Source of the DNA: Gammaproteobacteria bacterium
GTDB lineage: Bacteria; Pseudomonadota; Gammaproteobacteria; UBA4575
NCBI GenBank assembly: GCA_965222615.1
Contig: CBDCUI010000009.1
Span: 214,454 to 278,453 of the forward strand
Direction of reading: 5' to 3'
Length of the DNA stretch: 64,000 nucleotides
The first letter of the stretch is position 1, and every line of letters starts with the position of its first letter. This document shows, one piece after another, positions 46,540-58,543 of the stretch. The position numbers were made by a program, and so were the translations under genes. The notes beneath the pieces are model-generated. The model did no database searches, was not told where the DNA came from, and saw only the letters and a list, made by a program, of their open reading frames with translations.

Positions 46540-46997
46540 ATAGTCTCGAACCGATAAGGTGATTAACCATCTGGTTAATCGTTTTCTTAACATAATATAT
46601 ATTATGCGAAGTTAAATATGTGGGTGCCTAATAGAATTTGACGTCTCTTAAACATGTGTGATTCTTAGTAAAACCAAGCACTTTTCAGGACTAAAAGTCA
46701 GTACTTCAGGAGTAAAACTAAGTACTTGAGTAATTAATAAGACTAAAACTAGATACCTGAATTCATGATCTATTTCTAAAGATTTGTGACTTTAAAGTTC
46801 GAATCTGATGGCTTCTTCGATATAAGAGTCTTTACAGCCGTAATCCATAGCCAGCTCAGTAATCGATTCGCCGGCTTTAAATCGCTCTGCAATTATTTTT
46901 GTGGGGACGCATACACACTTGAGCAATGGTTTGCTTCCAGCAATTCCAGGTATGCGTTGAATTGAATTGTTTATAAATTACCTATTATTTGCTTTAT

Positions 46998-47405
46998 TTA
47001 AACTGCACCATGATGACCGTACGTATGTGCAGCGCGTTTGACTGAATCAATATCACCTACACGAAGTTTGTCGATTGGACGACATCCATCTACTGCATAG
47101 TCGTGACCCAACAAAAAGATGAAATTCGACCACGGATCATCATCGCCAAGTATTTCTAATATTTCTTGTAATCCGGGAACTAAATTTGCTCCCTCGAATT
47201 GCCAAATCGGATATTGAAACTTGCTATCAACATCAACAGCCAATAACTGATTAGAACTACGGATTCTCTCAAGCTCTACCTCCGTGATTCCCAGTTGCTT
47301 TGCAGCATCTGCGGCATTAACGCAGCCACCGTCGACTAGCAAAAGTTCTTGTCTGGCTATTCGACCACGTTCTTTAACACGCTTTTCTGCAGCACTAATT
47401 CCCAT
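46998..47405 (-). CDS. Hypothetical HTH-containing left-end protein (copy in the intact Tn7-like element)
   Basis: 135 aa, inverted near-identical copy of the 45783-46199 product. Confidence 0.35.
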   Translation of the reverse strand: MGISAAEKRVKERGRIARQELLLVDGGCVNAADAAKQLGITEVELERIRSSNQLLAVDVDSKFQYPIWQFEGANLVPGLQEILEILGDDDPWSNFIFLLGHDYAVDGCRPIDKLRVGDIDSVKRAAHTYGHHGAV

Positions 47406-47602
47406 CTCAGTATTATAAAGAATTAATCAAGTCCCCTCTTCGTTGTATGTATCACTCCCCAACTATTGCACAAAAGATGGGGAGCGAATCATACATATTA
47501 ACTATCTGTTTTATAATAATATTTTCAATTATTTTGTTGAAAAAATAACATAACTAGAGTAAATTTCTCACCAACTTTTTGAGTAATAGATAAATAGTTG
47601 GT

Positions 47603-48253
47603 ATGTTAGAAACATCAACATCCGAAGTGAAAAACTTCAATCACCCAGCTCCTGGGTCGACCATAAAAGTCGAACCAATTCGAACTGTTCAAGCGATTCA
47701 CAAAATTAAAACCATGCTTGAACCTAATCCGCGTAACTATTGTTTATTCGTTCTTGGGATTAATACCGCATTTCGAGCTTCTGAATTACTTTCAATAAAG
47801 ATTGGACAGGTTAAATATTTAAATCCAGGAGATCGGTTAGAAGTTAAACAACCAAAAACGAAAAAGTATCGATCCGTGACAATCAATCAGTCAGCTCATG
47901 ATGCGATACGTCGATTAATTATAGAAAAAGATATAGAAGCTCTCAAAAAAAGAAACTTGAATATCTCTGATGACGATGCATTTCTATTTACTGGCCAACG
48001 CGGATCGTCAGCTCTTAAGGTTTCAACTTTAAACAATATGGTTAAGGATTGGTGTAGAAAAGTTAATCTGAAAGGTAATTTTGGTAGTCACACTCTACGA
48101 AAAACCTGGGGATTTATGCAGCGCAAGAAGCAAGACACCCCTATTCCTTTATTGATGCAAGCATTAGGTCATGCAACTCAAAGACAGACTATGGAATATT
48201 TATGCATTCAAGAAAAAGAAATTGAGAATGTTTATACAGCAATGGAACTATAG
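47603..48253 (+). CDS. FimB/FimE-like tyrosine site-specific recombinase
   Basis: 216 aa. PRNYCLFVLGINTAFRASELLSIKIGQV aligns with FimB ARNYCLTLLCFIHGFRASEICRLRISDI (catalytic Arg). C-terminal HTLRKTWGF...LGHATQRQTMEYL supplies the His-x-x-Arg and His...Tyr catalytic residues. Confidence 0.8.
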   Translation: MLETSTSEVKNFNHPAPGSTIKVEPIRTVQAIHKIKTMLEPNPRNYCLFVLGINTAFRASELLSIKIGQVKYLNPGDRLEVKQPKTKKYRSVTINQSAHDAIRRLIIEKDIEALKKRNLNISDDDAFLFTGQRGSSALKVSTLNNMVKDWCRKVNLKGNFGSHTLRKTWGFMQRKKQDTPIPLLMQALGHATQRQTMEYLCIQEKEIENVYTAMEL

Positions 48254-48374
48254 TAGTGGCTAGGATTTATACAACCTTTCAAAGCTATATATTATTCTAT
48301 GATGTATCCATATACTTTATATAGAATAATGTTACGTTTACTCCTAATGGTGGTGCGCATAATGAGGGTTAAAA

Positions 48375-49379
48375 ATGGCACACGGTAGATTGCTCAGACA
48401 ACTCATTCGTGCTGGTGTTAATGCGCCCGGAGAAGAATTTCGTGAGGTAGCCGAAAAGGTTATTCGCGAAGAACGTGAAAAAAAACATCATTTACTAGCT
48501 AATGATCTAGAACGGATTCTGTACGGCGAAAGTAATGATGAAGCACGTACCCTCTTACCACTATCGCTACCTGAAGTGCCAAAGGATCGAGAGCGACATA
48601 TACCACTTTTAGAAATTCGCGAACCAGTTCGTTCTTTCGCAGACATTGTTCTTACCAAAGACAACCGTGAGATACTCGAACATGTTTTGCAAGAACAGGG
48701 ACGGCGTGATGTGCTTGGCTCTTATGGTTTGAAACCTGCCAATCGTTTACTATTCTGCGGGCCACCTGGATGTGGAAAGACCTTAGCTGCAGAAGTATTA
48801 GCGACCGAGCTTGGTTTACCACTACTCTTAGTGCGCTTTGATGCGGTTGTGTCATCCTATCTTGGTGAAACTGCAGCAAATTTACGAAAAGTGTTTCAGT
48901 ACCTTGAAACTGGACGTTATGTTGTTTTGTTTGATGAGTTTGATGCGATAGCAAAAGATCGTGCGGACGCATCTGAGCATGGTGAATTACGAAGGGTTGT
49001 AAATGCATATCTGCAAATGATGGATAGCTATCGTGGCAATTGTTTGTTACTTGCCGCATCAAACCATGAAGGTTTACTTGATAAAGCCCTTTGGCGACGA
49101 TTTGATGAAGTACTTTTCTATCGTCGCCCAACAACAGAAGAAATTATTGATTTGGTTGCTGTAAAACTTCGAGGTATTCGCTATAACTTTGAAACAGAAA
49201 ACGAACCGACTATCGCTAACTTCAATGGGATGGCGCACGCTGACATTGAGCGTGTATTGATCCGCGCAATTAAACATATGATCTTATCGGGTCGTGAATT
49301 TTTAAGCACTGACCACATCGCACTTGCCCTAGAACGAGAACGGGAAAGACGATCTGTCGCTGAACATAAGTCGATTTAA
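48375..49379 (+). CDS. AAA+ ATPase, IetA-like (partner of the downstream S8 protease)
   Basis: 334 aa. Walker A GPPGCGKT, Walker B VVLFDEFDAI, sensor-1 ASNHE; classic AAA core. Stop is 5 bp before the S8 protease start. Confidence 0.7.
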   Translation: MAHGRLLRQLIRAGVNAPGEEFREVAEKVIREEREKKHHLLANDLERILYGESNDEARTLLPLSLPEVPKDRERHIPLLEIREPVRSFADIVLTKDNREILEHVLQEQGRRDVLGSYGLKPANRLLFCGPPGCGKTLAAEVLATELGLPLLLVRFDAVVSSYLGETAANLRKVFQYLETGRYVVLFDEFDAIAKDRADASEHGELRRVVNAYLQMMDSYRGNCLLLAASNHEGLLDKALWRRFDEVLFYRRPTTEEIIDLVAVKLRGIRYNFETENEPTIANFNGMAHADIERVLIRAIKHMILSGREFLSTDHIALALERERERRSVAEHKSI

Positions 49380-57434: not shown

Positions 57435-57716
57435 AAATTTGTAAACTAATAAAGATGACTGTTCTAAATTAATAAATAATTACTATCTCAATCAACATAA
57501 AATTGTCTTGTAATATCAAGATTTTGATCTGTTATGTTTCTTAACTAATTATGTTAGCCGTGTATAGCATTGTGAACACACACTATATGTAGTGGGTAGC
57601 ATTGTTTTACTATCGCTTTTTTCATGAATTTTAGGAAATTTTGCATATTTTAAGAATATATGTAAAAAAATGGTTGTATAAATAATCTAATATTTCGATC
57701 GTTTTAGATCAAAATT

Positions 57717-58112
57717 TTGTTTAATATTTTGTATATGGGAAGAGACTTAAAAGTACTCGGCGAAAACATAACGTTACTGCGTAAACGTTTATGTTTGAAG
57801 CAAGACCAGTTGGCTGAAATTGTTGGAACTTCCCAGTCACAAATTAATGCGCTCGAAAGCAAGAAAACTTGTAATCCTGGTTATTTCATTGTTGAAGCAT
57901 TAGCAGATTTTTTTGGTGTTAATAACTGGGATCTTGTTCATAAGCGTCTGGTGAACTTGAGTCCGAAAGAGCAACTTATTAATAGAGTAAGAACAAACAC
58001 ATCTGACAGTGATTTTTTACAAATTAAGCATCTAGTAGATGGTCAGCATCTTGAATACGCGAAAAGCGGTAAATTTCGCTACGAGTATCGCCAGATAAAG
58101 AAAAGTAACTAG
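57717..58112 (+). CDS. Xre-family HTH transcriptional regulator at the transposon right end
   Basis: 131 aa. LRKRLCLKQDQLAEIVGTSQSQINALESKK is a Cro/C1-type HTH. Confidence 0.6.
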   Translation: MFNILYMGRDLKVLGENITLLRKRLCLKQDQLAEIVGTSQSQINALESKKTCNPGYFIVEALADFFGVNNWDLVHKRLVNLSPKEQLINRVRTNTSDSDFLQIKHLVDGQHLEYAKSGKFRYEYRQIKKSN

Positions 58113-58129
58113 AAAATAGTGTCCTGTAA

Positions 58130-58280
58130 TTCAAGCATCGACTTTTACTACGAAGTTTCCCCAAAATCTGATTTTTAGTCCTGTTTCTTCACGTCTAAAT
58201 TAGTCCTCGAATTGGACTGATTTCAATAATTACAATAATTTAGGACTGTTTCTTAGTGTTCGGTATTACTAGGAACTACA
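58130..58280 (-). repeat. Tn7-like right-end repeat array and terminus
   Basis: Four (A/T)GGACTAA / TTAGTCCT(G/C) sites at 58131, 58178, 58203 and 58241, ending in ...GGTATTACTAGGAACTACA at 58280. Confidence 0.6.
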
Positions 58281-58543
58281 ACATGCCCTATACCAGAAAG
58301 TTACTTTTAAGATTACTCTGGTTACCATGATACGTGACTACTTATTAGATAGGCTTTCTATTACCTAATGGCTACACAAAGTCGAATATTGTTTTAGAAA
58401 AATATCGTATCTTAATGAATTTATTAGAATTATATTTTTAAGAATAACTGGCCTTATCCCACGATTAATATATTCTAATTCTATTAGTAAAATTATATAT
58501 TAGAATCTTCTAATATTATTAATATTTTATGGGATGTGTAGTT

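Follow-up and report, generated by a model that had tools for sequence, protein, structure and literature searches.

We analysed a window of 64,000 nucleotides from a Gammaproteobacteria bacterium of the lineage UBA4575 (contig CBDCUI010000009.1 of assembly GCA_965222615.1, positions 214,454 to 278,453 of the forward strand), which contains a Tn7-like transposon of 11,624 bp (46657-58280) beside a dif site. Judging by the sequences, we consider it likely that dif is the attachment site of this transposon and that its TniQ directs homing there. In a wider reading, to which we give even chances, the element belongs to a widespread and unannotated Tn7-like lineage that would home to Xer sites, i.e., to classical dif in XerCD hosts and to a xerS-linked site in Paenibacillaceae, inserting at a distance of about 45 bp with the tns-distal end turned towards the site; a subset of this lineage would carry a TnsA pseudo-nuclease, implying a switch to replicative transposition. 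The lineage comprises at least 109 loci in species-representative genomes, mostly of Bacillota and also of Gammaproteobacteria. Its anatomy, spacing and polarity can be read directly from the sequences and recur across genera. TniQ would be the reader of the site, and TnsC, by analogy with other Tn7-like systems, would set the offset of about 45 bp.

Ends of the element and the adjacent dif site

An earlier, sequence-only reading of this stretch had proposed a terminal inverted repeat (TIR) of 15/19 identical positions starting with TGT, together with a target-site duplication (TSD) of 5 bp, ACATG. Direct reading confirmed both. The left terminus at 46657 begins TGTGATTCTTAGTAAAACC, the reverse complement of 58262-58280 is TGTAGTTCCTAGTAATACC (15/19 identity), and perfect copies of ACATG directly abut the TGT...ACA termini on the left (46652-46656) and on the right (58281-58285). 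A blind TSD plus TIR scan compared all TGT in 40000-52000 with all ACA in 57400-64000 and kept those pairs whose 5-bp flanks are identical and whose termini agree at 13/22 positions or more; it returned a single pair, 46657/58280 with ACATG. The left end (46657-46750, plus strand), which is distal to the tns genes and proximal to dif, consists of TGTGATTCTTAGTAAAACC and compact TnsB-type sites at +30, +51 and +82. The tnsA-proximal right end (58120-58280, minus strand) consists of TGTAGTTCCTAGTAATACC and dispersed sites at +33, +73, +98 and +128. These sites were scanned for with the 11-mer consensus CAGGASTAAAA (at least 8/11 positions), for which the background is 0.5 per 200 nt. Exact octamers (A/T)GGA(C/G)TAA occur at +31 and +52 in the left end and at +74 and +99 in the right end. 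The arrays of this octamer that the sequence-only reading had described are indeed enriched at the ends, as five of the ten copies in the window fall in the two ends of the element and in that of L', a decayed sibling described below. As the left end is compact and the right end dispersed, however, the spacing is not the uniform 20 bp that had been reported, and the layout is asymmetric. With TGT...ACA termini, several internal transposase-binding repeats and a 5-bp duplication, the element has the boundaries of a Tn7-like transposon.

dif is a 28-bp non-coding site at which chromosome dimers are resolved. Nearly all circular bacterial chromosomes have a single copy of it; it has related forms on many plasmids and is normally bound by XerC and XerD. 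In the window, the dif site that we propose as the attachment site lies at 46585-46612 on the minus strand and reads ACTTCGCATAA-TATATA-TTATGTTAAGA, i.e., an 11-bp XerC arm (46602-46612), a 6-bp centre and an 11-bp XerD arm (46585-46595) that follow the proteobacterial consensus. This 28-mer matches the published dif of Thiobacillus denitrificans (ACTTCGCATAATGTATATTATGTTAAAT) at 25/28 positions and that of E. coli at 22/28. Its mismatches to the T. denitrificans site are at position 13 and at the outer positions 27-28, which are variable according to a survey of 161 proteobacterial dif sites. At up to three mismatches, dif has a single match in the window and none in 100 shuffles. The GC skew, calculated within the 64-kb window alone, is positive to ~40 kb, stays close to zero over the mobile DNA and becomes negative after ~52 kb, so that the cumulative curve plateaus at dif and then falls, as expected at a terminus.

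The suspicion of the sequence-only reading that the attachment site may be unusual was thus well founded, with dif found 44 bp outside the left end. Its search for the target at the right, tnsA-proximal end was misdirected, as dif lies at the opposite, tns-distal end. The right flank (58286 onward) is the continuation of the dif flank, which explains why no conserved gene is found there.

The terminal 19-mer has three copies in the window at up to three mismatches, against 0.04 expected. The third copy (46521-46539), which the sequence-only reading overlooked along with the inverted, decayed left-end copy outside the element, is the terminus of L'. The L' remnant (39204-46539, minus strand) is found beside dif on the XerD side. 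Its left end is inverted, with the terminal TGT at 46539, and it contains no tns genes; its left limit is against a thioesterase gene. TnsB-type sites at +30, +51 and +83 give its end the same layout as the left end of the intact element. L' is colinear with element segments 46657-47476 plus 51780-52157, and the inverted repeat between 45811-46404 and 46793-47386 is 94% complementary (81% in the end segments). It contains a 138-aa open reading frame (ORF; 45783-46199, plus strand) that shares a 90% cluster with the 135-aa ORF by the left end of the element, and it is broken up by three IS110-family copies and one IS30-family element. On these comparisons L' is an older, decayed sibling element. 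Sequence differences of 6-19% and unlike cargo show that the two copies did not arise by a recent duplication. Intramolecular replicative transposition was considered as the source of the two inverted copies and rejected, given the direct 5-bp duplication, the divergence of 6-19% and the different cargo.

The termini of L' and of the intact element face each other across 117 bp. dif lies between them, with its XerD arm 45 bp from the L' terminus and its XerC arm 44 bp from the terminus of the intact element, the latter distance including the ACATG duplication. Two insertions at this locus are thus 44-45 bp from dif, and the same distance of 45 bp is found in three relatives (L022, L059 and L067), which points to oriented insertion at a fixed distance. 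The spacer between the L' terminus and the XerD arm contains a perfect 9-bp palindrome, GATTAACCA-TC-TGGTTAATC (46561-46580).

Xer and probable Xer sites beside related elements

We compared 80 genome loci containing relatives of the element, oriented with tnsB on the plus strand. The Bacillus dif was searched for with ACTTCCTAGAATATATATTATGTAAACT, which we take to be the reference sequence and which has a 28/28 match in Bacillus pumilus. Bacillus-type dif sites (21-28/28) were found in nine Bacillota loci from nine genera, and in all nine the site is downstream of the tns-distal end with its XerD arm nearest the element. No dif match of at least 21/28 was found upstream of tnsB in any of the 80 loci. 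The distance from the end to dif is exactly 45 bp in each of the three relatives named above, of which the element of Anoxybacillus tepidamans (L059) is fully bounded (9131-19157), with a TIR of 24/26 and the TSD TGGAC on both sides. These boundaries were obtained after manual adjustment of the TSD plus TIR scan, which mostly failed on L001-L005 and on the dif-adjacent Bacillota loci, where the tnsA-proximal ends are too divergent or the cargo is out of range. Bounded elements with TGT/ACA ends and duplications of 5 bp were likewise found in four other relatives (L011, L013, L024 and L074).

A conserved 29-bp block, ACATATGTAYAAAATACGNGTTTTGTGAA, was found in 24 Paenibacillaceae-type loci (L007, L011-L014, L025, L027, L028, L036, L037, L039, L042-L044, L046-L050, L055, L058, L064, L068 and L076). 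In 23 of these, the plus-strand block is found downstream of the tns-distal end, at a median distance of 43 bp from that end (n=22 loci with a callable end), and the spacer is non-conserved. In L011 and L048 xerS follows within ~70 bp of the block; the L011 protein scores 389 bits against a cutoff of 267 for the XerS equivalog. XerS is described as a single-recombinase Xer system whose gene is immediately beside its site. Many other block loci have, directly beyond the tnsA-proximal end, a more distant Xer-like gene that would adjoin the block in the empty site. The block has no Rfam match, and no RNA target was found near it. It is probably a XerS-type site.

Within a target class, the C-terminal halves of the TniQ proteins can be aligned from end to end, but between classes only in part. 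The same tnsA-tnsB-tnsC-tniQ family was also found in 111 plasmid records, on megaplasmids of the Bacillus cereus group and on replicons of Burkholderia, Paraburkholderia and Cupriavidus, with genes mostly annotated as hypothetical (e.g., AE017195.1 (pBc10987), 155457-157436). A metagenome scan for a dif arm followed after 40-55 nt by a family end (ATTATGYKAA N{40,55} TGTRRTTCYTASTAA) gave three matches, all by chance, in coding DNA without tns genes.

Three relatives have unusual sequences around their ends. In L018 (~15170-15305), a tnsA-like fragment (...DMWVKFRDGSEEFREIKYKS...) reaches the dif 28-mer without the 45-bp spacer and looks like a second element truncated at dif. In L082 (1-55, at the contig start), two TnsB-site-like repeats, TAGTAGTAATGCTGGAT and TAGTACTAATGCTGGAT, are found beyond the tnsA-proximal terminus TGTGATTCCTAGTAATACC, which is nearly that of the window; these outer repeats may be the remnant of another end. 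The tnsA-proximal terminus of L081, TGTGATTCCTACTAAAAGC at 8444, is inside the 3' part of a rsmI-like methylase ORF (7911-8483), which reads into the element.

Genes of the element and the TnsA active site

The sequence-only reading had placed a minus-strand tnsA-tnsB-tnsC-tniQ operon by the right end, next to a Xre gene and without Cas genes. Profiles, synteny and the TniQ fold match bear out this arrangement, and no Cas gene is present among the ORFs of at least 100 aa inside the element, all of which are accounted for. Neither did the ORF list or the profile searches reveal a TnsE-like gene among the genes of the element. The operon is conserved in more than 80 loci. The closest relatives, from metagenomes and metagenome-assembled genomes, share the order xre(-)/tnsA-tnsB-tnsC-tniQ(+), and a large Bacillota clade has the order tnsA-tnsB-tnsC-tniQ. 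The Xre-family helix-turn-helix regulator (57717-58112, plus strand; HTH_19, 3e-11) is divergent from tnsA and conserved in relatives, with a gene in the same position in L001, L081, L082 and L084-L088.

Profile searches for the tns ORFs, which the sequence-only reading had proposed as a check, succeeded in part. TnsC (53798-54787, minus strand; 329 aa) matched AAA_22 (1e-11) and TniB (1.1e-4), but TnsA had no match in Pfam or NCBIfam, and in Pfam TnsB matched rve_3 alone, below threshold, as did TniQ its own family (2.5e-5). As the standard libraries barely recognise the core proteins, the assignments of TnsA and TniQ rest on homologue profiles and fold comparison. TnsC is a short AAA+ regulator in which we read Walker A (GNQRVGKT) and Walker B (LLFIDE) motifs in the translation, and it is 47-54% identical in relatives. 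TniQ (52199-53785, minus strand; 528 aa) is of TnsD size, and a comparison with the TniQ fold supports its identity as a TniQ/TnsD-family protein, the proposed target selector. TnsB (54800-56695, minus strand; 631 aa) has the residues D265, D335 and E372, which are invariant or nearly so in 40 homologues, and is a DDE transposase of the Mu/Tn7 type with an RNase H fold. Its nearest solved structures are TnsB from the CRISPR-associated transposons (CASTs) ShCAST and PseCAST, with matches that are specific but have weak E-values. Among 8,000 candidates scored from 5.8 billion sequences, 54 relatives of TnsB had E-values of at most 1e-5, the best with 50% identity and almost none of them named.

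The TnsA homologue (56673-57434, minus strand; 253 aa) has four homologues of 40-46% identity, three of which match PF08722. A family profile of 14 sequences matches PseCAST TnsA at 3.6e-12 and maps the catalytic Glu, Asp and Lys columns, which were placed by a family alignment anchored on that solved protein. Homology to TnsA is therefore clear, and the catalytic triad is incomplete: the family motif ES.LE reads AGDLI in the window (Glu to Ile), YTFD is kept, and E(V/I)K reads YEVL (Lys to Leu). Aligned with what we take to be the Tn7 TnsA sequence, as a lead only, the changes fall at E63 and K132. The same loss of Glu and Lys, with Asp and a full-length ORF kept, was found in three metagenomic relatives with ~45% TnsB identity (L083, 9355-10008; L085, 9238-10008; L086, 9267-10004), whereas the TnsA of eight other relatives retains the triad. 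A neighbour-joining tree of TnsB gave no resolution between one and several inactivations of TnsA.

With Glu and Lys missing from TnsA, the element must be either in decay or a variant that transposes replicatively. May and Craig reportedly found in 1996 that mutation of the TnsA active site converts cut-and-paste transposition to the replicative mode. If mobile, the element would be nicked at its 3' ends alone, and its transposition would be replicative, with cointegrates, in place of the cut-and-paste of Tn7. The description of the transposon as intact in the sequence-only reading holds for its four full-length ORFs, the TnsB DDE triad and the TnsC Walker motifs, and becomes doubtful with the two replacements in TnsA. 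The element may instead be a decaying relic that arrived once by cut-and-paste, then lost its TnsA active site and is now immobile, in which case its adjacency to dif may reflect the arrival. This we regard as possible, if rather doubtful. Two of three TnsA catalytic residues are replaced, a miniature inverted-repeat transposable element (MITE) and a nested cassette have accumulated within the element, and the neighbouring sibling L' is clearly decayed. In addition, the proteins tested are all singleton clusters, so there is no second copy in the collections (of its own genome, the 64-kb window was searched directly). Against a relic stand the intact reading frames and TnsB and TnsC motifs of the operon, the perfect termini and TSD, and the recurrence of the same loss in the three relatives. 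That recurrence in proteins of full length suggests a tolerated, possibly functional state and a natural route from cut-and-paste to replicative Tn7-type transposition.

The cargo lies between the left end and tniQ. The 135-aa ORF by the left end (46998-47405, minus strand), whose paralogue adjoins the end of L', had no convincing family match. It is followed by a nested 4.3-kb cassette (47465-51787, plus strand) flanked by CCCCAACT cores at 47457-47464 and 51780-51787. The cassette encodes a small tyrosine recombinase (47603-48253, 216 aa; Phage_integrase, 1.3e-18), ietA (48375-49379; PADLOC IetA, 2.6e-93) and ietS (49385-51694; PADLOC IetS, 1.1e-197). The two PADLOC matches are full length, and the adjacent genes for an IetA AAA+ ATPase and an IetS S8 peptidase constitute an IetAS system; NCBIfam matches to IteA and IteS were below the curated cutoffs. 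CCCCAACT has only three copies in the window, and the third is an unoccupied site in L' (45728-45735, minus strand). The cassette cores read CCCCAACT(A/T)TT, and the empty site in L' pairs the left-junction sequence on one side with the right-junction sequence on the other. From these junctions, the recombinase-ietA-ietS module is itself a putative mobile cassette.

Next to the cassette is a MITE of ~283 bp (51835-52117), which carries the inverted repeats of the IS30-family element in the L' remnant (~42350-43609; transposase domains HTH_38 and rve). The two share inverted repeats of ~42 bp, ATGTCCGCT...GCAACAC. The GCGGACAT repeats were considered as integron attC sites and rejected, as they are the inverted repeats of the IS30-family element and the MITE. 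The IS110-family copies in L' are at 39262-40400, ~40852-42330 and ~44245-45665, and the last two have in common a duplication with 99-100% identity over ~400 nt. The insertion points of at least two of the three fall inside IS30-type inverted repeats (one copy follows ATGTCCGCTAACGAC at 39261, another precedes AAAGCGGACAT at ~45670), which suggests that the IS110 element targets the IS30-type inverted repeat. Two tandem units of ~245 bp (43632-44028; repeat families D3, D5, D7 and D8) separate the IS30 element from an IS110 copy, and a 2,840-aa ORF (30167-38689) is found immediately to the left of the mobile-DNA cluster.

Target choice and comparison with known systems

In Tn7, the tnsA-proximal right end faces attTn7. 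If the element were targeted in the same way, its determinant would be in 58286-58528, upstream of the gene for a 207-aa protein, and dif would be incidental. The position of the L081 tnsA-proximal end inside an rsmI-like gene would agree with this. However, no gene 3' end, tRNA or Rfam RNA is found beside that end of our element (the window as a whole has no tRNA, tmRNA or Rfam family that could serve as an RNA target), and the flank there merely continues the DNA that flanks dif. Moreover, the relatives conserve sequence beyond the tns-distal end and not beyond the tnsA-proximal end, and it is the tns-distal end that has the compact site array. Targeting from the tnsA-proximal end is thus very unlikely. 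It is also scarcely credible that the element has no sequence-specific target at all, with the terminus region acting as a sink for mobile DNA or favoured by a TnsE-like preference, and the spacing due to chance. The region is rich in insertion sequence (IS) elements and the TnsE pathway of Tn7 favours the terminus region, but there is no TnsE-like gene here, the 44-45 bp spacing recurs in two events at this locus and in unrelated genera, and the polarity of the end and the orientation of dif are fixed in the nine Bacillota loci. Integration by XerCD recombination at dif, as in integrative mobile elements exploiting Xer (IMEX) such as the CTX phage, would account for the adjacent dif and the tyrosine recombinase gene on board but is already contradicted by the junctions, which are TGT/ACA inverted termini with a 5-bp duplication 44 bp from a dif that is the only one in the window, with no dif-like junctions and with the recombinase belonging to a nested cassette that has CCCCAACT junctions of its own.

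Homing to dif remains the reading that we prefer, and several observations weigh against it. The intact element is on the XerC side of dif, unlike every relative; L' lies on the XerD side, as do all the Bacillota relatives. A mirrored secondary mode of insertion is plausible, as the two arms of dif at this locus, compared as inverted repeats, agree at 8/11 positions. Target immunity of the Tn7 type would disfavour an insertion 117 bp from L'. The C-terminal half of the window TniQ has no detectable similarity to those of the dif-adjacent Bacillota elements or of any target class. Among the closest relatives, which are proteobacterial (TnsB identity 43-50%), no dif was found within 10 kb on either side (L001-L005, L079 and L081-L088), a result that is uninformative rather than negative, as the cargo runs past that DNA to the edge of the locus. 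Neither a classical dif nor bounded ends were found for the plasmid relatives (pBc10987, Variovorax and Burkholderia gladioli). Look-ups by exact match with TnsB and with the 207-aa protein of the flank yielded no contig that could provide an empty site, five tested proteins of this genome formed singleton clusters or clusters confined to this genome, and a scan of genome contigs found no locus closer than 48% TnsB identity. As a singleton in the collections, the host genome offered no empty site for comparison. From its sequence and the local skew, we infer that the 28-mer serves this chromosome as its functional dif, and the dead TnsA is possibly mere decay.

If dif is the target, the TnsD-sized TniQ would recognise it, either as bare DNA or as the Xer-bound site, and would recruit TnsC, which in turn would place TnsB. 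The geometry observed is that of a join between the compact tns-distal end and a point 40-45 bp outside dif, where 5 bp are duplicated and the 28-mer stays intact. The locus would then record two insertion events, of the older L' on the XerD side and of the present element, mirrored, on the XerC side. The value of Tn7-like elements lies in selectors that locate safe, conserved sites to the base pair, and all well-described protein-guided sites known to us are gene ends or RNA genes. With dif, TniQ/TnsD selectors would have an attachment site of a new class, one that is short, non-coding, nearly universal, single-copy and normally occupied by recombinases. It would provide a testable system for whether TniQ can use a protein-DNA complex as a landmark, and a candidate broad-host-range landing site for engineered insertion. 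The flank of dif would also act as a depot for defence cargo, with IetAS here and systems resembling the cyclic-oligonucleotide-based antiphage signalling system (CBASS), among others, in relatives.

The element resembles Tn7 in its heteromeric TnsA/TnsB, AAA+ TnsC and TnsD-sized TniQ-family selector. Like Tn7, it has TGT...ACA ends with multiple internal TnsB sites that are asymmetric between the ends, makes a 5-bp duplication, and is inserted at a fixed distance beside a conserved site that is left intact. Unlike attTn7, which is downstream of glmS, the proposed target is a 28-bp non-coding recombination site and not the 3' end of a gene. The compact array is at the right end in Tn7 and is mirrored here by the target-proximal end, which unlike in Tn7 is tns-distal. 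As the compact, target-proximal end is far from the tns genes, gene order and functional polarity are reversed relative to Tn7. Further differences from Tn7 are the short TnsC, the lack of TnsE, the TnsA minus two catalytic residues and a divergence so great that the Pfam TnsA and TnsB models stay silent. In type V-K CASTs, transposition without an active TnsA nuclease gives cointegrates, and the same would be expected here if TnsA is truly inactive. However, V-K systems are RNA-guided and have no tnsA, whereas the present element has a full-length TnsA homologue and no Cas genes.

Minakhina et al. are said to have described in 1999 the Tn5053/Tn402 'res hunters' (TniABQ plus TniR), which reportedly target res sites in a TniQ-dependent manner and transpose replicatively without an active TnsA. 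As generally described, these elements share with the present one a short TniB-like ATPase and, if our reading is correct, TniQ-dependent homing to a recombinase-occupied site. They differ in that they target the res sites of plasmid serine resolvases and carry a resolvase of their own, whereas the window element keeps a TnsA homologue, has no serine resolvase or other serine recombinase among its ORFs and would target a chromosomal Xer tyrosine-recombinase site. It is thus not a Tn5053/Tn402 element. In concept, res hunting by the Tn5053 family is the closest precedent for a recombination site being targeted through TniQ.

Tn7-like transposition has also been linked to tyrosine-recombinase folds and dif-like sites in Tn6022-type elements. 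According to two studies, a recombinase-derived TnsF selects comM in these elements (PMC10293859), and in Acinetobacter a XerC-like gene and dif-like site are treated as their cargo (PMC11014353). Here, there is no TnsF, and dif would be the target rather than cargo. In the accessible parts of surveys on the target selectors and cargo of Tn7-like elements, dif is not named as a target, and the open-access literature, as far as its texts were available, reports no Tn7-like element that targets dif, an absence that is no proof of novelty. In that literature, the only transposons reported as dif hunters are those of the IS1202 family (ISAjo2 group), described as single-protein ISs of 1.5 kb that insert 5 bp from the XerC arm (PMC10132070). 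They share with the present element a TnsB-like DDE transposase, TGT/ACA ends, an extra internal binding site, a 5-bp duplication and oriented insertion by dif or its plasmid form pdif (PMC10132070). The element described here is not a member of this family: it is 11.6 kb long, has TnsA, TnsC and TniQ in addition to its transposase, and is 44-45 bp from dif, with its relatives on the XerD side. A TniQ that reads dif or its recombinase would unite the res hunting of Tn5053, the dif hunting of IS1202 and the homing of Tn7.

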